A DNA stretch of 33,070 nt, taken from UHGV virus genome UHGV-1834275; one strand, given 5' to 3'. The position numbers were made by a program, and so were the translations under genes. The notes under the pieces are model-generated. The model searched no databases, was not told where the DNA came from, and saw nothing but the letters and a program-made list of their open reading frames with translations. This document shows, piece by piece, positions 21,170 to 33,070 of the stretch (the stretch's first letter is position 1; each line of letters starts with the position of its first letter). This stretch comes from a virus.

Positions 21170-23098
21170 TTATTTAAAGAATCCTCCACCACGTCTAGAC
21201 GGACGTACTACACGACCTGTTTTTACTGGTGCTGGTTCTTCTTTATTTACTTCTTTATTTAGTCCTTTCTCTTTTTGTTTGGCGTTGAATTCGCGTAGTT
21301 TGCGGAATGGCTGATTACCTAATTTAGATAGATACCAGTGGAAACATATTAAAGCGTAGTTAAGACAATCAAGCGTTTCATTCCTTGCTGAACTAATTTT
21401 CTTAACCCATACCCACGCCCCAGCTTTAATAACTCTCTTCTCACTTGATACCTGAATAAAGTAATCATCTGGTACTGAATGGCTGAAGTGTATTTGTACT
21501 TCACTACTATTACCACTATCCGATACTGCACGGTTTAATAGTTGTCTAATATTACTTTTCCCTAAGTTTACGTTTAGGTTTATTAGACTATGACCACCAG
21601 CCGTAGAGCCTTTAAAGAGTGGGTTAGTATTTGAAGTACCGCCCTTGATTGGTTTAAAGATTGTCGATGCACTACAATAGCGATATACCGTACTGGTTGC
21701 GTTACCGTTCGAACTATCTACAAAACCTGCAAGTACTTTAAGTGGTTTACCGGATACGGTTTTAAAGTTAGTTTGTGAAAATGCTGTTAGCTTATTCCAT
21801 GCGGGAGCCTCTATTTTAGTACAGTCAATGCTATGAATACTGCGATGATCGAGTACATAAAGATTCTTTTCACTTATTCCTAACGTTGTTACTTCAAGGC
21901 GGTCTAACTGTTGGTCTACACCTAGTACGATTCCTTGACAGTCATCCGGCACGGTATCTATATCTATTGAACTATCACGTAGGTTTTCAAGTAATACTAA
22001 ATCATGATCGGTATTCTCTTTATCAATATAAGGAAGTCCTAAGACGTTATTGTAGAATGAGGCTAGATCAAATGTATAATGTGCTTCGGCAAAATCCTGT
22101 ACTATTGATTTGATCGAGTTAATCGGGGAGTATAAACGGCTAATATGATACCCCATGATATCCGTTACTTCTGGTACTGTAGCTATCCATTCACCCTTAC
22201 GTACCATTCTTACACGTTCGGCTTCTGTGATTACATTATTACACTTAGGACATTGTAGTTTTGCTGTCTCTGCATCTGGAATGCGACGACGACCACCATC
22301 AATAATTTTCCAGTCGAATTTAACATTTTCAAATACTAATTCATGTGCATGATCACAATGTGGGCAAGGTACGTAGAACTTCTGTTTATTACTTTGCTCG
22401 TACTGCTGAGTGATTAAATCATTCTCATCAAGTGGTGTAGAACAAACCATAATAAGAGGGTTGCTAAAAGCCTTTGTACGCTGTTCTGCTAGCTTTAGTG
22501 GGTTCCCTTCATCACCATCTGCATCTACGTTAGATATTTCGTCAAGAAAGATACGGGGGGCTGTCAAGCCTCGCAAATTCGCACTACTACCCAATGTTAG
22601 GAAGTACGTAAAAGTACCGTCTAAGTTTTGTTGTGTCTTATCATTATTAGTATAGTTTTTATCATTCTTATTACTGACTAGATTTTTAAGTACTGCACAT
22701 GCTTCGATTACTGATTGCCATTTACCAGTACGAAACTTACTAGTAGTGCTGGCTGTTGCACCTGCGAAAATTAGATTGCTTGGATCATTTGCGAGGAAGT
22801 AGTACATACTATTCTGTAAAACTGTTGTTTTGAGAAGTTGTGCACTGCTCATCAAAACTATTTTTCTAATTCTTGGATTAGTAATGTCATTTATGGGCTT
22901 GTGCTGAAAGGAAAATAACTTTACGCGTTGTCCTTGTAGTTCCCCATCCGGGAATACTAAATTATTCTCTACCCATTCCGCTGGTAGTTGTCGCTTCGGA
23001 GGTAGGATCGACTTCGCCGCCCTCGTTAGTACCTTCATCATCTTCTGGTAGTTGTTCATCCGTGTATGTTCCTTCATATTCATAGCTACCAATTTCAT
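21170..23098 (-). CDS. Terminase large subunit, lambda GpA family
   Basis: LPAEWVENNLVFPDGELQGQRVKLFSFQ...SAQLLKTT parallels the lambda gpA N-terminus (TAVEWADANYYLP...FQ...SAR); C4 zinc-ribbon CPHCDHAHEL...CPKCNNV as in gpA (CPHCGEE...); C-terminal NETLDCLNYAL resembles gpA NEALDCFVYAL. The true start is probably an internal Met, since the ORF overlaps the small-subunit gene by up to 137 nt. Confidence 0.9.
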   Translation of the reverse strand: MKLVAMNMKEHTRMNNYQKMMKVLTRAAKSILPPKRQLPAEWVENNLVFPDGELQGQRVKLFSFQHKPINDITNPRIRKIVLMSSAQLLKTTVLQNSMYYFLANDPSNLIFAGATASTTSKFRTGKWQSVIEACAVLKNLVSNKNDKNYTNNDKTQQNLDGTFTYFLTLGSSANLRGLTAPRIFLDEISNVDADGDEGNPLKLAEQRTKAFSNPLIMVCSTPLDENDLITQQYEQSNKQKFYVPCPHCDHAHELVFENVKFDWKIIDGGRRRIPDAETAKLQCPKCNNVITEAERVRMVRKGEWIATVPEVTDIMGYHISRLYSPINSIKSIVQDFAEAHYTFDLASFYNNVLGLPYIDKENTDHDLVLLENLRDSSIDIDTVPDDCQGIVLGVDQQLDRLEVTTLGISEKNLYVLDHRSIHSIDCTKIEAPAWNKLTAFSQTNFKTVSGKPLKVLAGFVDSSNGNATSTVYRYCSASTIFKPIKGGTSNTNPLFKGSTAGGHSLINLNVNLGKSNIRQLLNRAVSDSGNSSEVQIHFSHSVPDDYFIQVSSEKRVIKAGAWVWVKKISSARNETLDCLNYALICFHWYLSKLGNQPFRKLREFNAKQKEKGLNKEVNKEEPAPVKTGRVVRPSRRGGGFFK

Positions 23099-23763: not shown

Positions 23764-24702
23764 ATGAAACACATAATCCAAACCAGAAGTGTTTTTAAGG
23801 ATATCGAAGACTCTTTATTTAGTGAGTTGCATTCAGCTAAGACAAGTATCAAAATCTGTGTTGCATGGATAAACTTTGAGCTTTTTGAAAATATATTATT
23901 ATCTAAGGCTAAAGAAGGTGTTGAAGTTGAGATATTAGTTAATAATGATTATATCAATACAAAATTTCTTGATAAAATATCTGATAATATAAAACCATTA
24001 ATTAATCTAATTAAAAACCCTATTAGTAACCACTTAATGCATCATAAATTTTGTATCATTGATGATGAAGTTTTGATTACTGGCAGTTATAATTGGTCAA
24101 AAAGAGCACCATATCATTATGAAAATATAATAATCATCCGTAATGATTTCAATCTAATAATGCAATTTAAACATGAGTTTGCAGATTTAAAATACATGGG
24201 TGCAATGCCAAGTACAGAATTTAATGCATTTAAAGTAACCAAAAATCTCAATAGATTTGTTGTTGGCACATATAGTTCATCTGTGGGGATATATGAAACC
24301 GTCACATTGCAGTTATGGGAAATTGATATTAACAACTTAACTTTTGAACGACATGGCGAAATGGATATCCCTTTCTTCAATTATTTATTAGATATTAATA
24401 CTGATGATCATTATCTTATTGATGAAAAAGAAAGGTACATCGATCTATATGATCAAGAGCGTAGACAGATGGAGACTATCCAAAGTCATTTTAGAAGATT
24501 AAATTGTTCAATTCATGCTTATGGAACAGCAATAATAGCGAACGAGAGCGAATACCTTGAAGGTTATGAAGAGCCTATTCGTGTAATTCACTTCAATTGG
24601 ATAGATATGCGATTAAGCAAAGTATTACCCTCTTCTTTGCCCGCAACTATGGAACTTGAAGGATTATGGCACGAAATATATGCTCCAAATGGATATATTT
24701 AA
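23764..24702 (+). CDS. Phospholipase-D-family (single HKD) nuclease with an uncharacterised C-terminal domain
   Basis: Perfect HxK(x)4D(x)6GSxN motif: HHKFCIIDDEVLITGSYN; preceding KICVAWINFELFENILLSKAKEGVEVEILV typical of PLD/Nuc folds; ~170-residue C-terminal region without recognised motifs; AAGGA 7 nt upstream of the ATG. Confidence 0.8.
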   Translation: MKHIIQTRSVFKDIEDSLFSELHSAKTSIKICVAWINFELFENILLSKAKEGVEVEILVNNDYINTKFLDKISDNIKPLINLIKNPISNHLMHHKFCIIDDEVLITGSYNWSKRAPYHYENIIIIRNDFNLIMQFKHEFADLKYMGAMPSTEFNAFKVTKNLNRFVVGTYSSSVGIYETVTLQLWEIDINNLTFERHGEMDIPFFNYLLDINTDDHYLIDEKERYIDLYDQERRQMETIQSHFRRLNCSIHAYGTAIIANESEYLEGYEEPIRVIHFNWIDMRLSKVLPSSLPATMELEGLWHEIYAPNGYI

Positions 24703-25094: not shown

Positions 25095-25158
25095 CCATAT
25101 TTAATTATCACTTAAGGATTTCAACATCAGGATTTAAATTTTAATTATATATAATAGT

Positions 25159-25190
25159 AAAAGCCTAATACTCATCAGTAATAGGCTTTT
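25159..25190. terminator. Bidirectional terminator between convergent accessory genes
   Basis: AAAAGCCTA (25159..25167) / TAGGCTTTT (25182..25190) 9-bp stem with 14-nt loop; A- and T-tracts built into the stem ends. Confidence 0.5.
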
Positions 25191-25197
25191 ACCTAAA

Positions 25198-25617
25198 TTA
25201 TAATTGATTCAATCGATAGATATTAGATGTACTTGAGCCATCGCTATACACCTCTGATATAGTCAGTTTGTTTCCATCCACTTTGTATTTTACTACACTA
25301 TCAGCCGGATCATTTCTCCAACGACCTGAGCTATCTGGATTGTTTGATGCCCACATAACTTGATCATCAATCAGTTTGCACTTGATAGCCCATCTTGTGC
25401 TGTCATCTTTACGTATGTAATGGACATAGGCTACATCAGATTGAATCTTATCAAGCTTCATTATTTTATGATCTCGCCCAAACATAGATGCAGCCGCCGC
25501 TTTGCAGATCTGACCAACATTAGCTTCCGCTGCGTAGAGTGAAGAACTGAACAATAATGGCACAATCACTAATAACTTTATCATCGCATATCGTCTCGTA
25601 GTAAAAATTAATTTCAC
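25198..25617 (-). CDS. Secreted/periplasmic protein with N-terminal signal peptide
   Basis: MIKLLVIVPLLFSSSLYAAEA has the n/h/c pattern of a Sec signal peptide with an A-x-A site; the track start is GTG at 25617 with AAGGA upstream, and ATG 25584 is an alternative. Mature part has paired Cys residues; no catalytic motif. Confidence 0.55.
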   Translation of the reverse strand: MKLIFTTRRYAMIKLLVIVPLLFSSSLYAAEANVGQICKAAAASMFGRDHKIMKLDKIQSDVAYVHYIRKDDSTRWAIKCKLIDDQVMWASNNPDSSGRWRNDPADSVVKYKVDGNKLTISEVYSDGSSTSNIYRLNQL

Positions 25618-25618
25618 C

Positions 25619-26344
25619 TTATTTCCTTAATAACTTTTTTAATTCCTCAACTGTCTTCATTTCTTTTCCAATATGAATCATTGCATGACAGTTTGCACAT
25701 AAAGGTATAAGATCTTCAATTGGGTCAATCTTATAGCGTTTACCAATAGTATGTAGTGGCACTATATGATGAACATGAATATAATTTTTTCCGTGACTTC
25801 CATACACTTCTTCAAAATTAAAACCACAGACACCACAACTCAAACCATGTTTATCGATACATTCTTTTCTAGCCTTTGGATCTCTCTCATAGTACGTAGC
25901 AATCCTTTGATGCTTTTCACCTTCATAGTATTCACTTTCTATTTCAGGTGTGAATGAATAGTAATCTTCATCGGTGGCATACCAATCTCCATCTTTTTTA
26001 GTAAGATATTTTCGTACTATTTTCTTTTCAAAATGTTTAATCCTAGCAGCACCATTTTCAGTTGTTTTCTCATGCCTAGTCTGGCTAAAGGTGAAAAGAC
26101 TATACCCTTCATGTAAAATTTTATCTATGTGTTCGATAGATTGTGTATAACCATTTTTTTTGTGTCCATTTACATTTTCACGCCAACTGCTAGCCAAGAT
26201 TAAAACTTTCTTACCATCATCTGATCTAAGATCTTCCCAAGCTCCAAAAATTATTTTTTTGTTGATCTCATCAATAAATGACCAACTCCAGTTATCATTT
26301 TTACATGTAGCACCCAAAGAACGCATGAACTCTGTTCGGGACAT
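25619..26344 (-). CDS. HNH endonuclease (McrA-type HNH) with an N-terminal domain of unknown function
   Basis: C-terminus CGVCGFNFEEVYGSHGKNYIHVHHIVPLHTIGKRYKIDPIEDLIPLCANCHAMIH matches the McrA-type HNH/zinc-ribbon pattern (C..CG...HH..PL...G....N...LC.NCH...H); N-terminal ~170 residues show no recognised motif. Confidence 0.8.
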   Translation of the reverse strand: MSRTEFMRSLGATCKNDNWSWSFIDEINKKIIFGAWEDLRSDDGKKVLILASSWRENVNGHKKNGYTQSIEHIDKILHEGYSLFTFSQTRHEKTTENGAARIKHFEKKIVRKYLTKKDGDWYATDEDYYSFTPEIESEYYEGEKHQRIATYYERDPKARKECIDKHGLSCGVCGFNFEEVYGSHGKNYIHVHHIVPLHTIGKRYKIDPIEDLIPLCANCHAMIHIGKEMKTVEELKKLLRK

Positions 26345-26382
26345 TTTTCATCCTTAAAATATGTGACCTACATCACATGAAA

Positions 26383-26463
26383 CTATCGACTGTAGGAGGT
26401 TTCTATCCTTCGTAAAGCTAACAAACCTACCCAAAGTAGATAGAAACCTCCTACAATCGATAG
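26383..26463. repeat. 25-bp inverted repeat (one mismatch) with 31-nt spacer in a divergent intergenic region
   Basis: CTATCGACTGTAGGAGGTTTCTATC (26383..26407) and GATAGAAACCTCCTACAATCGATAG (26439..26463) are reverse complements except for one position. Confidence 0.75.
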
Positions 26464-26547
26464 TGTATGTGTGTTCCTTTTGATGGTAAAGTATTAATAT
26501 AGTGTTACCTAGACTGGGTGTACATATAATCAATATTTGGGTTTGAT

Positions 26548-27258
26548 ATGCTTAATCTCACTAAATGTAATTTACTTTTGATCGGCACTGTAATAACTCT
26601 ATTACTGATAGCTATTCTTGTAGGTATAAAAATACTATTCTCCGATTCTAATCCAGATCTAGGCAGCTTAGCAGATTGGATCAGTTCTGTATCCGCAATA
26701 GGGACTCTTGGTGTTGCCTGGTTAGCTTATAGTAAAGCTGATGACTACATTGACAAAAAAGCTTCGGAAAGAGGAATTGATATCCTTGTCAATATGGTAA
26801 CTGAATCATTCGTTGCTTATTTCAACTCACTAAATGAAACTAATTTCCATGCTTCAAAACTTGAAAATAAAATGATATTGATTGGCTTGGTTGATGAAAA
26901 AGTAGATTGCAATATTGAACTACAATCATTAAGAGAAAAAATCATAACTCTCTTCGAAAATAGTCATCAAATAGACAAAGATTTTATAAAAATGAAAATA
27001 ATGAAAATATCAAAACCCAGTGATATTTTCTACGATCCAGTAACTAGCGATGATACATTGCAAGCGTTAAAATTAGCATTTCATAAACTGAACACTGAAA
27101 TTTGTGAGAATGAAAATCAATACAACATTAATAATGATTTACTTAGCGAAAATATCAACTTTATTAAAAACACTACCGAAAAGTTAGCCCATGATATTCG
27201 CAAACAGTTCTTTACCTCGCCGAATACTTATAAAGATTATTTTGGAAATCTGTCTTAA
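26548..27258 (+). CDS. Membrane protein with two N-terminal TM helices; paralogue of 779..1519
   Basis: LLLIGTVITLLLIAILVGIKILF then DLGSLADWISSVSAIGTLGVAWLAYSK; shares the GSLADW(L/I)SS loop motif with 779..1519; soluble C-terminal domain diverged. Confidence 0.6.
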   Translation: MLNLTKCNLLLIGTVITLLLIAILVGIKILFSDSNPDLGSLADWISSVSAIGTLGVAWLAYSKADDYIDKKASERGIDILVNMVTESFVAYFNSLNETNFHASKLENKMILIGLVDEKVDCNIELQSLREKIITLFENSHQIDKDFIKMKIMKISKPSDIFYDPVTSDDTLQALKLAFHKLNTEICENENQYNINNDLLSENINFIKNTTEKLAHDIRKQFFTSPNTYKDYFGNLS

Positions 27259-27303
27259 ATTATACGCTATCAAATATTCCATCAACATAAACAAGGAAAG
27301 TAG

Positions 27304-28002
27304 ATGACTACTCTCACTAGAACTTATAATTTACCAAATGAGCTAGTTGAACATTTTTCAAATAACATTGTCTATTTCGAAAAACTTTTGTCTAAGGATT
27401 TTTCTGACTTAAATGTTAATGTAGCACCAGAAGACATTAAGAAAATAGAAAAATCTTTCGAAGTATCACATAGAATACGTGATTTCGAAATCAATCTGTA
27501 TTGGCAAAGACTGAACTTCCTTTGGGCCATTACAGCATTGCTATTTGCTGGATGGGGAACATTGATCTTTAAAATCATCGAATTCAATGGAGGGGAAGCA
27601 CCTTATATTATATTTGCCGCCTTATCATTTCTCTCACTTATAGGTGGGATTGTAACTATATTCACAAGCTTTATCATTGAGGCAGGTAAGCATTGGCAAA
27701 AGGTTTGGGAGTTTCATGTTCACGCTCTTGAACCTTTTGTATCAGGTCATTTATATGCAATTCAGTTTTCTTATAAAAATAAAAAAAAGGCATCTATAAG
27801 TAGAAGCGTAGAAACTTTCAATTATGCTTTGCTGTTTCTTTGGGCATGTTCAGCAGTATTCGCCGCAATCATCCCTTCACAAATAGGGAACGGTCTTGCA
27901 GGCATTATCCAATTAGTTATTTCTCTTCTTATAGTTGGTGCTTTTGTTTATATACGCAACTCTGTTACTAAAAAGGAGTCTATTAAAATTCAGCTTGATT
28001 AA
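27304..28002 (+). CDS. Integral membrane protein (about 4 TM helices) with ~65-residue soluble N-terminus
   Basis: AAGGAAAG ribosome-binding site; hydrophobic segments LNFLWAITALLFAGWGTLIF, YIIFAALSFLSLIGGIVTIFTSFII, FNYALLFLWACSAVFAAII, LAGIIQLVISLLIVGAFVYI; 45 nt downstream of the 2TM gene, same strand; followed by a terminator. Confidence 0.6.
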   Translation: MTTLTRTYNLPNELVEHFSNNIVYFEKLLSKDFSDLNVNVAPEDIKKIEKSFEVSHRIRDFEINLYWQRLNFLWAITALLFAGWGTLIFKIIEFNGGEAPYIIFAALSFLSLIGGIVTIFTSFIIEAGKHWQKVWEFHVHALEPFVSGHLYAIQFSYKNKKKASISRSVETFNYALLFLWACSAVFAAIIPSQIGNGLAGIIQLVISLLIVGAFVYIRNSVTKKESIKIQLD

Positions 28003-31171: not shown

Positions 31172-33070
31172 CTAGATCTGGTCTATCCGATAACGCTCTA
31201 TGAACTCTTTACGTGTTAAACCAGTCGATTCTAATGCAGTGGCTATATCCTTTGGAACTCGACCATTCAAGGCAATACTATATGTATTGCCTTCATACAC
31301 AATGTCTACTCGATCATACTTTCCGGTATTAGGCCAGAATGAAGCCCCACTTATTTCACTATAACCAACCACTTCTAACATCTCATTAGCAGTATTGAAC
31401 AGATCTAAATAACTTTGTTCAATTTTATCAAGTTGTTCCACTGCTTTATTAAATAATGGCAGATTGCTAGTGGTAAGAAATCCTTCATCTCTGATACTTA
31501 CATTATCAACAGAAGAAAATTCAACTTTAAACGCCCAATGTGGTTTTCTATCAGTTCCACCAAAAACTAACCATTCATCTTTAAAATGATACTTTATTTT
31601 TATCGTTATACACCCATCAGTTTTATCAACTATAACACTTTCAATAATAGAACTAATTACTTTCCTTATTTTATTTCTATCCGTATCCTGCATATTTGTA
31701 AAAACCGCCCACTGAATAAGAATCATAAATTCATTTATATCGACTTCTAGAGATCCTTTACCTTTCAGTGAATATAAGCGTTCTTTTAACTTATCAACTT
31801 CCAGAACAGTCTTTTTACGTTCCATATCAAACGCATTTAGTTGAACTGCTAACGCACTAACATTAGGAGCAATTGCTATTGCTTGAGCCATGTTTGTTAT
31901 GCGAGATTCCAGATCAGTTATCAACGTTTCTTTTCTACTGAGGTCTTCTTCTATCACAGTTGTGTCAATACCATCTTTTAGTCTCTTATTCATGTAACCG
32001 ATCAGTAGTGAAATGATCGTACAGTGTTCAACTAATTGTGCTGATATAGACCAGCCAGAACAGTTTTTTTGTAAGTGAACCCCATTAGTACAAATATAGC
32101 GAGCACTGCCATGATTCATGAAAGAATGCATAGTTCCTCCACACTTGCTACACCGTAACACCTGCAACCCTGATAACAATTTAATTTCTTCTACTTTGTC
32201 TTTCTTAGCCTTGAAGTTGTTTTGCTGCTTACGTTCAGCCAAGGTTAAATACTCTGCTTCATCTTTGCATAACCATGGATAGTAGTTATCAAGTTTGTAA
32301 GTAGCACCACCAGCATTGATAGTCCTTTCACCAATCAACGCCCGATTATCACGCATCTTTTTCAATACCTGATAATCCCATTCTTTACCCTTTAAACCAT
32401 TAGGATATTTTTTATCGAGATGACGCTTTACTGTATAGATGCCATTCCCATCTAAAAACATGTCTATAGCTTCGCGAGCGATACTCCAGTAAACGGGATG
32501 TTCTTTTACTGCTTCATATTGCGAACCTGAATCATCTATCCAAAATGGATGGCGACCAACTGACTTAATGTTTACTGGCAACCCTGCTTTATGACGTTCG
32601 ACCAAGGCAACAACATTGCCTATGGTCCTGTTAGATTTCGTTTCTGATTCTTCATTGCCACGGATAAACATCAGAATAGAAATCATCAGATCAGTAGGGT
32701 TTTGTCTGATGGATTCTCTGTTATAGACCTTCCGATCCATTCCTGTGACAATCGTTAGCCCTAAACCAATCAATTCAAGGAATAAACGAAGTGCTTCATC
32801 CACCTGATCGCGTGATAGTCGGTCGAGGTTTTCACAGTAAAGCCAAGAGTCAGACGGTATAGCATTATTTTTTACGGCGTCTATGAAGTCACCCAACTTA
32901 CCCGCCCTATTTTTTCCCCTGTAAGCACTCGTGCCAGGTTCCAAAATTTCAACCATTTCAAGCCCCGCTTCTTCAGCATAGGCTTTCGCTGCCGCTACCT
33001 GCCTGTTCTTGGTTGTTCCTTTTTCTTGGCGATCACTTGACCACCTGATATAGCTATAAAGTTGCGGCAT
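31172..33070 (-). CDS. Large serine recombinase (phage integrase of the resolvase/invertase superfamily)
   Basis: N-terminus MPQLYSYIRWSSDRQ has the catalytic-serine motif (Y.R.SS..Q) of serine recombinases; 632 aa with Cys-rich region (CSKCGGTMHS...CTNGVHLQKNCSGW) and long C-terminal extension typical of large serine integrases. The start codon is at the last base of the window. Confidence 0.85.
   Translation of the reverse strand: MPQLYSYIRWSSDRQEKGTTKNRQVAAAKAYAEEAGLEMVEILEPGTSAYRGKNRAGKLGDFIDAVKNNAIPSDSWLYCENLDRLSRDQVDEALRLFLELIGLGLTIVTGMDRKVYNRESIRQNPTDLMISILMFIRGNEESETKSNRTIGNVVALVERHKAGLPVNIKSVGRHPFWIDDSGSQYEAVKEHPVYWSIAREAIDMFLDGNGIYTVKRHLDKKYPNGLKGKEWDYQVLKKMRDNRALIGERTINAGGATYKLDNYYPWLCKDEAEYLTLAERKQQNNFKAKKDKVEEIKLLSGLQVLRCSKCGGTMHSFMNHGSARYICTNGVHLQKNCSGWSISAQLVEHCTIISLLIGYMNKRLKDGIDTTVIEEDLSRKETLITDLESRITNMAQAIAIAPNVSALAVQLNAFDMERKKTVLEVDKLKERLYSLKGKGSLEVDINEFMILIQWAVFTNMQDTDRNKIRKVISSIIESVIVDKTDGCITIKIKYHFKDEWLVFGGTDRKPHWAFKVEFSSVDNVSIRDEGFLTTSNLPLFNKAVEQLDKIEQSYLDLFNTANEMLEVVGYSEISGASFWPNTGKYDRVDIVYEGNTYSIALNGRVPKDIATALESTGLTRKEFIERYRIDQI

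Follow-up and report, generated by a model that had tools for sequence, protein, structure and literature searches.

The stretch of DNA analysed here, 33,070 nucleotides of the UHGV virus genome UHGV-1834275 (hereafter the window), carries a long and near-perfect inverted repeat between the gene for an HNH endonuclease and a divergently oriented gene for a membrane protein. This repeat is probably the stem of a promoter-proximal leader hairpin, part of a unit formed by the promoter and leader of the HNH operon. Its pairing has been maintained by selection, its unpaired loop is conserved, and it belongs to a family of hairpins that have unrelated stems, a promoter-like site at a fixed distance, and a common orientation with respect to the late genes. 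The family is uncatalogued and absent from Rfam. As an explanation of the whole, we tentatively propose, with a probability of roughly 0.4, a leader hairpin of the HNH operon whose loop carries a signal acting on transcription elongation.

Geometry and folding of the inverted repeat

An earlier note on this sequence, made by a model from the letters alone, had described a near-perfect inverted repeat with 25-bp arms, one mismatch and a separation of 31 nt, lying 5′ of both flanking genes. A repeat finder recovered it at that place with the same mismatch and spacer, the arms being one base longer per side (26 nt each, 96% complementary). The repeat lies within the 203-bp divergent gap between the HNH gene, which starts at 26344 on the minus strand, and the gene for a 236-aa membrane protein, which starts at 26548 on the plus strand; it is indeed 5′ of both, and the centres of its two half-sites are 57 bp apart. 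The coordinates of all features are collected in Table 1. Searching for the arm with up to three mismatches retrieved only two sites in the 33 kb, both corresponding to the repeat itself, and none of 100 dinucleotide-preserving shuffles contained any arm match. The RNA folding energy, a check that the note had suggested, was far better than in shuffled controls for both strands, with −46.7 kcal/mol for the plus strand (z = −11.8) and −56.2 kcal/mol for the minus strand (z = −10.9), on which the single mismatch becomes a G.U pair. The core of the loop is unique in the window, also when two mismatches are allowed.

Compensatory changes in the stem around a fixed loop

Loci are designated below by an L number. 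Those with HNH proteins 72–93% identical to that of the window keep a long hairpin at the same site, 37–42 nt before the start codon. Among these relatives much of the stem sequence has been replaced (for example, ACTATCGATTGTAGGAGGTTTCTATC by ATATCGCTTGCGGTGTTCCTG), with the other arm changed to match, and the loop segment TTGGGTAGGTTTGTT does not vary at all across the seven HNH-linked versions of the stem. We measured covariation on this orthologous HNH set alone; a MAFFT alignment of the whole family misplaced the 3′ arms, and the family as a whole was handled with custom scripts and a covariance model. In the alignment of seven distinct orthologous hairpins (HNH proteins 72–100% identical), 94% of the cells pair and both sides have changed in 9 of the 28 stem pairs. 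The covariation score was 0.316, compared with 0.164 in shuffles, and not one of 500 shuffles reached it. When the partners were slid by 1–3 columns, only 34–49% were paired. The outer half of the stem has decayed in one relative (L097), in which 12–15 bp are left.

These data also bear on the suggestion, made in the earlier note, that the repeat could be an operator for a dimeric regulator. This found no support: the arm sequences of orthologues diverge strongly (compare ACTATCGATTGTAGGAGG... with ATATCGCTTGCGGTG...), only their pairing being kept, and the conserved part is the unpaired loop. The upstream neighbour of the HNH locus differs in L013, L099 and L117 and, therefore, the hairpin belongs to the HNH side of the divergent gap. 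We rejected the idea that it is a general feature of this HNH family, since homologues at ≤70% identity are devoid of it (E. coli genes, Erwinia, L121, L122 and 79 other genome loci). As a separate observation, a distant HNH homologue in a Nitrospiraceae genome (L064, ~2380–2470) has an unrelated inverted repeat of 22 bp, whose spacer measures 32 nt, 30 nt ahead of its start codon; this repeat is alike in geometry and different in sequence, with TTGACT within the arm. Another relative, L009, has an IS903-like element (8790–9860, encoding a 322-aa DDE transposase and flanked by a 9-bp target duplication) in an otherwise identical prophage. This insertion (at window positions ~26468–26484) parts the predicted −35 from the −10, leaves the hairpin intact, and may have silenced the HNH operon.

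A dispersed family of hairpins sharing the loop core

Core scans of public viral and metagenome contigs revealed that the same core caps ~30 distinct hairpins with unrelated stems of 9–30 bp and loops of ~19–35 nt, in which the 13 bases GGGTAGGTTTGTT are invariant. The flanking-stem score of the occurrences of the 15-mer was bimodal, with chance occurrences at 2–7 and hairpin members at ~9–26. Two extra scans in which the first two bases of the core were varied (AAGGG, ATGGG) added members. A relaxed search of the loci collected by then, allowing up to three substitutions in the TT-form core, added these AAGGG and ATGGG variants only, and a later covariance-model search contributed one degenerate copy. 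Some of the loci with an HNH hairpin contain a further member of the family (L099 2679–2750, with a 24-bp stem; L117 238–301, with a 14-bp stem).

All members are found in the accessory-gene region of related prophages, typically 1.5–3.6 kb upstream of the small terminase gene. They occupy junctions of accessory cassettes in every gene arrangement (divergent, tandem and convergent), and many have as neighbours the membrane-protein or 8xMP genes known from the window. The core shares the strand of the terminase gene at every locus that has this gene in view (window, L117, L144, L187, L189, L201, L230 and E. coli 55989). Several modules face antisense genes, as in L227, where the gene encodes 103 aa, and in L108, where the module points into the 3′ end of the gene for a cI-like repressor; such transcripts would be untranslated. 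The members of the family head add-on, mostly defence-type, genes of related enterobacterial prophages, for which they probably provide a common control signal where the transcripts begin.

A variant of the family resides in a prophage remnant of E. coli 55989 and 87 other genomes, the hairpin being intact in 88 of 5,426 complete E. coli genomes. In E. coli 55989 (L236, 19900–27600) this remnant has two modules, one intact (22990–23055) and one degenerate (24144–24211), together with SMODS and SLATT genes and a terminase gene interrupted by IS100. On the E. coli plasmid NZ_CP159696.1 (L235, 828–1279), a module and its downstream 103-aa gene lie between two IS1A copies. Such an IS1-bracketed module occurs in four records, resistance plasmids and one chromosome, and looks like a composite transposon that captured a cassette. 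The L108 member (8936–8988) has a 9-bp stem and lies 10 nt past the stop codon of the cI-like repressor gene, with its promoter facing that gene, across which it would yield an antisense transcript. The ~1 kb of DNA poor in open reading frames beside this repressor gene (L108 7950–8936) includes stretches 74–90% identical to unannotated non-coding DNA of the jumbo phages Xanthomonas XaC1, Serratia BF, Salmonella 7t3 and Munch, and Yersinia fHe-Yen9. A search of this region against Rfam returned nothing, and it may be a mobile non-coding element of a new kind.

A promoter-like site attached to the hairpins

A sigma70-like site is located directly 5′ of almost every hairpin, on the strand of the core. 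In the window, the candidate is TTTACC-17-TACACT, which matches the consensus at 8 of 12 positions, under the 9-of-12 cut-off of the promoter scan tool. Many family members have the motif ACTTTACCA(Y) 17–18 nt upstream of a TAnAnT hexamer; the exact 10-mer of this −35 block occurs once in the window. Other −35 forms in the family are TATACA, TTAACA and TTGAAC, with spacers of 16–18 nt, and the −10 hexamer takes the forms TACACT, TACAAT, TAAACT, TATACT and TATAAT. To quantify the association, we used as controls the chance occurrences of the core outside hairpins (n = 212). In 33 of 40 hairpins, and in 23 of the 212 chance cores, the sigma70 consensus was matched at no fewer than 8 of 12 positions by a site whose −10 ended 18–30 nt before the core (Fisher p ~1e-19). 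The best −10 ends 19–29 nt before the core although stem length varies threefold. Because of this fixed distance, the −10 falls inside the 5′ arm in long-stem members, including that of the window, and 5–8 nt upstream of the stem in short-stem ones. When HNH loci with different upstream neighbours are compared, their similarity begins ~10 nt upstream of the −35.

The usual spacing of ~7 nt after the −10 would place the transcription start of the window module at ~26454–26457. The fold predicted for an RNA begun at 26457 opens with a 19-bp stem that engages its very first bases; a small stem-loop and then the ribosome-binding site come after it. A possible pseudoknot between TTTACC and the GGTAGG of the loop was also considered. 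Members that have a different −35 hexamer lack the 6 bp of complementarity, and we treated it as a coincidence.

A possible elongation signal in the leader

We propose that a minus-strand sigma70-type promoter abutting the 5′ arm starts transcription toward the HNH gene at the positions given above. The HNH transcript would then begin already base-paired, in a stem of ~16–19 bp that would hide its 5′ end, and the G/T-rich loop core, on the HNH-sense strand, would follow ~15–35 nt after the predicted start. Promoter and leader would make up a portable module, and the conserved loop might be a common recognition or pause signal for an elongation factor, read either as the non-template DNA strand or as an RNA loop. 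We favour an elongation signal because several modules would drive transcription into antisense, untranslated DNA and all of them face the terminase-to-lysis array, and also because the core resembles ops, the RfaH site. In the version that we prefer, the loop would load a processive antiterminator, like ops, lambda nut or HK022 put, and antitermination would carry transcripts through the AT-rich accessory DNA, partly antisense and untranslated, toward the late genes. This antitermination part is possible and, taken alone, on the doubtful side.

Lambda-type nut sites, whose boxB is bound by N, and the put sites of HK022 are structured RNAs just downstream of phage promoters. They are recognised via unpaired nucleotides, their stems can vary, and they act in cis on the transcribing polymerase. 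Their architecture differs from that of the hairpins described here: boxB is a 5-bp stem with a pentaloop beside boxA, and put consists of two stem-loops, whereas the members of our family have one stem of 9–30 bp with a loop of ~20–35 nt. Examined as a nut site, the hairpin of the window does not qualify, as it has a 26-bp stem, a 31-nt loop and no boxA-like CGCTCTTA in the leader.

The core appears to fit the pause pattern G(−10)...Y(−1)G(+1), and the motif GGTAGnnT is expected in a random 13-mer with a probability of ~0.0015, before allowing for the number of comparable motifs. The 12-nt consensus of ops is GGCGGTAGCGTG, with the 8-bp core GGCGGTAG (PMC11880322, PMC5995543); it acts on the non-template strand of a promoter-proximal leader (PMC11880322), and its positions G4, G5, T6, A7, G8 and T11 are those whose substitution most lowered RfaH function (PMC5995543). 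When aligned on GGTAG, the hairpin core TTGGGTAGGTTTG is identical to ops at 6 of the 12 positions, which are precisely these six. Like ops and JUMPStart, it is found in AT-rich DNA that enterobacteria have acquired, and with the predicted start it would be promoter-proximal and on the non-template strand; ops belongs to the leaders of long horizontally acquired operons. We regard this likeness as a lead, not a test. The specific proposal that the loop is an ops-like loading or pause site for RfaH or for an element-borne NusG-type paralogue, packaged with a promoter and a 5′-protecting hairpin, is unlikely. If it were true, the module would be a portable ‘anti-silencing leader’ by which AT-rich defence and accessory cassettes escape Rho-dependent termination, with transcription reading on toward the late genes even across antisense genes.

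Several points weigh against a leader hairpin with an elongation signal. Both the promoter function and the start site of the HNH module are inferred from consensus sequences. The invariance of the core is partly a matter of construction, since exact-core scans found the members. A start inside the 5′ arm leaves the outer 7–10 bp of the long stems unexplained by the resulting RNA, and these outer pairs are complementary in most relatives; possible causes are read-through transcripts cut by RNase III, tolerance of variable starts, or template-switch mutation. An unbiased count of isolated non-Watson-Crick pairs gave nine G.T versus four A.C (p = 0.27), which decides neither between RNA and DNA nor between strands. 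A more asymmetric count (18 G.T versus 1 A.C) was biased by a stem finder that tolerates G.T and penalises A.C, and we discarded it as proof of an HNH-sense RNA. There is no consistent terminator shortly after the hairpins: an arrangement in the style of lambda pR′-tR′ had weak candidates in L201 and L099 only and is not general. No NusG-, Q- or N-like gene was detected among the 20 window proteins scanned with PHROGs. A good promoter-like site is located directly upstream of the small terminase gene (23765–23737) and, thus, the late genes may not depend on the hairpin module. As for ops itself, the core has TTG for GGC at positions 1–3 and T for G at position 12, and the replacement of C3 by G eliminates the C3:G8 pair; in addition, recruitment at ops requires no flanking inverted repeat, and ops is not embedded in a long one.

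Alternative explanations

The best surviving alternative, which we judge rather improbable, is a purely post-transcriptional leader. The hairpin would be a 5′-terminal stabiliser against 5′-end-dependent decay and the loop would dock one shared protein or small RNA, the whole family forming an RNA-level regulon. The predicted start is at or inside the stem base in nearly all members and would give a paired 5′ end, the geometry that stabilises mRNAs such as ompA. As in ompA-type stem-loops, the hairpin starts at or encloses the predicted first base, with no single-stranded 5′ tail, and the occurrence of one loop across unrelated stems and unrelated downstream genes suggests a common partner. 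However, ompA-type stabilisers neither need nor have a conserved loop and do not occur as dispersed families bound to a single type of promoter, several modules face antisense genes instead of translatable ones, no candidate binding protein was found, and a search of the window for a trans target found the complement of the loop nowhere else, that is, no loop-complementary partner.

Two further possibilities are unlikely to a similar, and greater, degree. In the first one, the stems of 24–30 bp would be RNase III sites in a long read-through RNA of the terminase strand, their cleavage separating or destabilising polycistronic segments that contain antisense stretches. The stems of the window, L096, L099 and L165 are near-perfect duplexes of 23–30 bp, long enough for RNase III, and a read-through RNA would explain why the outer stem, which precedes the predicted local start, is complementary. 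Nevertheless, many family members have stems of only 9–16 bp, cleavage requires no conserved loop, and the tight linkage to a promoter would be unexplained.

The second possibility is an element acting as DNA, either a recombination or cassette-boundary site (a folded strand or cruciform, as in attC) or an operator or self-immunity site of a defence protein, such as aba. It is consistent with the co-oriented position of the members at accessory-cassette junctions of every arrangement, with wobble counts that do not lean significantly to RNA, and with an outer stem that includes DNA probably not transcribed from the local promoter. The integron attC likewise keeps its structure while its sequence varies and lies, co-oriented, at cassette boundaries. 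Its conservation, however, is at the stem base (RYYYAAC, GTTRRRY) with extrahelical bases, whereas in our family it is in the loop, and a promoter is attached. These base motifs are absent at the stem ends in the window and its relatives, no integron integrase was seen nearby, and the sole recombinase gene seen in the element is that of the serine integrase at its end. The spacer of 20–31 nt also disfavours the extrusion of a cruciform. The earlier note had considered a relic recombination site marking a cargo boundary, which found no support: attC-type core sites are absent, as are direct repeats and target-site duplications at the hairpin ends, and the ends of the IS903-like element are unlike the arms. 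A precedent is the aba element of BstA prophages, a short non-coding stretch that functions as DNA where a prophage defence gene begins: it is 63 bp long, has direct repeats at its ends, extends over the start of the coding sequence and has a single cognate protein (PMC8585504). In contrast, our hairpins head unrelated genes that differ between members, so that no cognate protein travels with them.

We consider it very unlikely that the hairpin is a stand-alone small RNA, a short stable stem-loop comparable to RNA-OUT of IS10 whose loop would seed on a common target or be antisense to the opposite neighbour. The promoter directly at the base of a long hairpin and the members facing the 3′ end of an antisense gene (L108, L227) agree with it, as does the UUGG of the loop, which fits the YUNR U-turn motif typical of antisense recognition loops. 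Against it, the hairpins are followed by no U-tract or other terminator, the ribosome-binding site and start codon of the HNH gene come within 37 nt with the small palindrome alone intervening, and the window contains no complement of the loop. Finally, it is highly improbable that the repeat has no function, being a quasipalindrome kept and lengthened by template switching, which can change both arms together without selection, or a decayed mobile-element end as the IS903-like insertion close beside it in L009 might suggest, since the same invariant loop recurs within ~30 independent stems, all of which have a promoter at a fixed distance, the ends of IS903 are unrelated to the arms (for which reason we also rejected an insertion sequence relic), and there is one copy per window, with no identical copies elsewhere in the collections searched.

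Comparison with known elements gave no identity for the hairpin. The earlier note had named, as an outcome that would refute it, a generic repeat in many genomic copies; the window has only one copy. The 261-bp region 26300–26560 was searched for in 5,426 E. coli genomes and in 50,697 phage records, neither of which gave a match, and a 21-mer of the arm hit a single IMG/VR contig, representing the same locus. With no other copies of the arm in the window and IMG/VR or of the 261-bp region in E. coli and phages, we rejected a generic repeat, a miniature inverted-repeat transposable element and a repetitive extragenic palindrome; what is dispersed is a family that shares the loop and promoter only, not the arm sequence. 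A search of the whole window against Rfam 15 at gathering thresholds produced no match, a permissive one retrieved only generic models of microRNA-precursor hairpins (best score 27.3 bits, for a threshold of 72), and ARAGORN found no tRNA; on these results a known RNA or tRNA was rejected. An intrinsic terminator was rejected as well, because of the 31-nt loop, the lack of a T-run on either strand (and hence of a U-tract) and the position 5′ of both genes, and a terminator scan of 25100–26700 detected no terminator-like site. The core sequence had no match in the searchable literature, and a literature search on 8xMP, hairpin-bearing morons and defence hotspots gave nothing relevant. Of the three roles contemplated in the earlier note, an RNA processing or stability element fits best, given the compensatory changes in the stem and the conserved sigma70-like promoter into the HNH gene, and the operator and the recombination relic found no support as far as they could be tested. 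In its presumed action the hairpin comes closest to promoter-proximal antitermination or leader signals such as ops, nut and put, and to 5′ stabilising hairpins. It departs from each family compared in the testable defining features, and we class it as a cis-acting leader hairpin of mobile-element cargo genes.

Genomic context

The window corresponds to a compact prophage-like element of ~37% G+C. A serine recombinase gene occupies one end (31172–33070), the minus strand carries small and large terminase genes of the lambda type and, after them, those for portal, capsid and tail, and the lysis genes are close to the end opposite to the recombinase. Between the recombinase side and the small terminase gene lies an island of accessory genes encoding a PLD-family nuclease, the HNH nuclease, a small leader-bearing protein, and a pair of membrane proteins including one of the 8xMP family. 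The window genes scanned, which were not every open reading frame, comprise integrase, accessory, packaging, head, tail and lysis functions, with no recognisable repressor or replication genes among them. A transposase fragment is located at 8–310, and the window may represent a prophage that is defective or a compact element of an unusual sort. The same prophage was found in Pseudocitrobacter faecalis DSM 27453 and many assemblies, L016 among them.

The HNH gene encodes a putative type IV, McrA-like restriction nuclease, its match to McrA (PDB 6ghc, 4.4e-08) being confined to the C-terminal HNH region. The gene for the 128–139-aa protein is probably co-transcribed with it. This small gene adjoins HNH homologues in both orders, downstream in the window and upstream in L122 (1034–1420) and L123, which suggests a functional pair and not chance neighbours. 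The end of the HNH transcription unit is likely the 16-bp hairpin at the convergent junction, which the terminator scan did not score as a canonical terminator. The perfect palindrome between the leader hairpin and the HNH gene has the form of a CRP site. It lies ~25 nt before the start codon, is retained as (T)GTGA-N6-TCACA in all the HNH-linked relatives (L013, L014, L096, L097 and L099), and is predicted to be a 7-bp stem in the leader fold; judged from the sequence, its position fits repression or an RNA stem rather than activation.

On the other side of the gap, the pair formed by the 236-aa membrane protein and the 8xMP-family protein (26548–28002) recurs, in several divergent versions, beside hairpins of the family in many prophages. 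It had no PADLOC or PHROG family match and is a candidate accessory or defence system of a new type. The PLD-family nuclease, whose C-terminal half had no family match, is probably another stand-alone defence nuclease of the island.

Table 1 Features of the hairpin module and its surroundings in the window (positions counted from the first base of the window).
Feature	Position	Strand	Remarks
3′ arm of the hairpin (HNH sense)	26382–26407	minus	ACTATCGACTGTAGGAGGTTTCTATC; from repeat finder and arm search
5′ arm of the hairpin (HNH sense)	26439–26464	minus	contains the predicted transcription start
Apical loop, 31 nt	26408–26438	minus	5′ half conserved and 3′ half variable in alignments
Conserved loop core	26420–26434	minus	TTGGGTAGGTTTGTT; GGGTAGGTTTGTT in every member from core scans
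−35-like hexamer	26485–26490	minus	TTTACC, within the conserved block ACTTTACCAY
−10-like hexamer	26462–26467	minus	TACACT, overlaps the first 3 nt of the 5′ arm
Palindrome	26362–26377	either	TGTGA-N6-TCACA, between hairpin and HNH ribosome-binding site
Shine-Dalgarno-like sequence of the HNH gene	26350–26355	minus	AAGGAT, present in every HNH-linked relative
HNH endonuclease gene, 241 aa	25619–26344	minus	Pfam HNH 3.6e-08; PADLOC mREase_IV 1.6e-09
Gene downstream of HNH, 128–139-aa protein	25198–25617	minus	hydrophobic N-terminal leader; adjoins HNH homologues
16-bp hairpin with 4-nt loop	25157–25192	either	at the convergent junction, then UAUUAUAUAUAAUU on the HNH-sense strand
Membrane-protein gene, 236 aa	26548–27258	plus	single-pass; divergent neighbour of the HNH gene
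PLD-family nuclease gene, 312 aa	23764–24702	plus	N-terminal domain weakly matches the defence proteins MkoC, DpdK and DrmC

Implications

Prophage accessory genes, many of them involved in anti-phage defence, have to be expressed from foreign, AT-rich DNA, which is prone to silencing or termination by the host. A reusable promoter and leader hairpin placed before unrelated cassettes, in many related prophages and in an E. coli remnant present in 88 genomes, points to a common control point for such genes. Neither the existence of the family nor its linkage to a promoter nor the likeness of its loop to ops had been expected, and all three can be tested directly. Should the loop serve in factor loading or pausing, this would be a simple and testable new example of how mobile elements secure the transcription of their cargo genes, and a part that could be used in expression design. 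If the hairpin is merely stabilising, it would still be a new and easily searchable marker of the starts of cassettes in this group of prophages.

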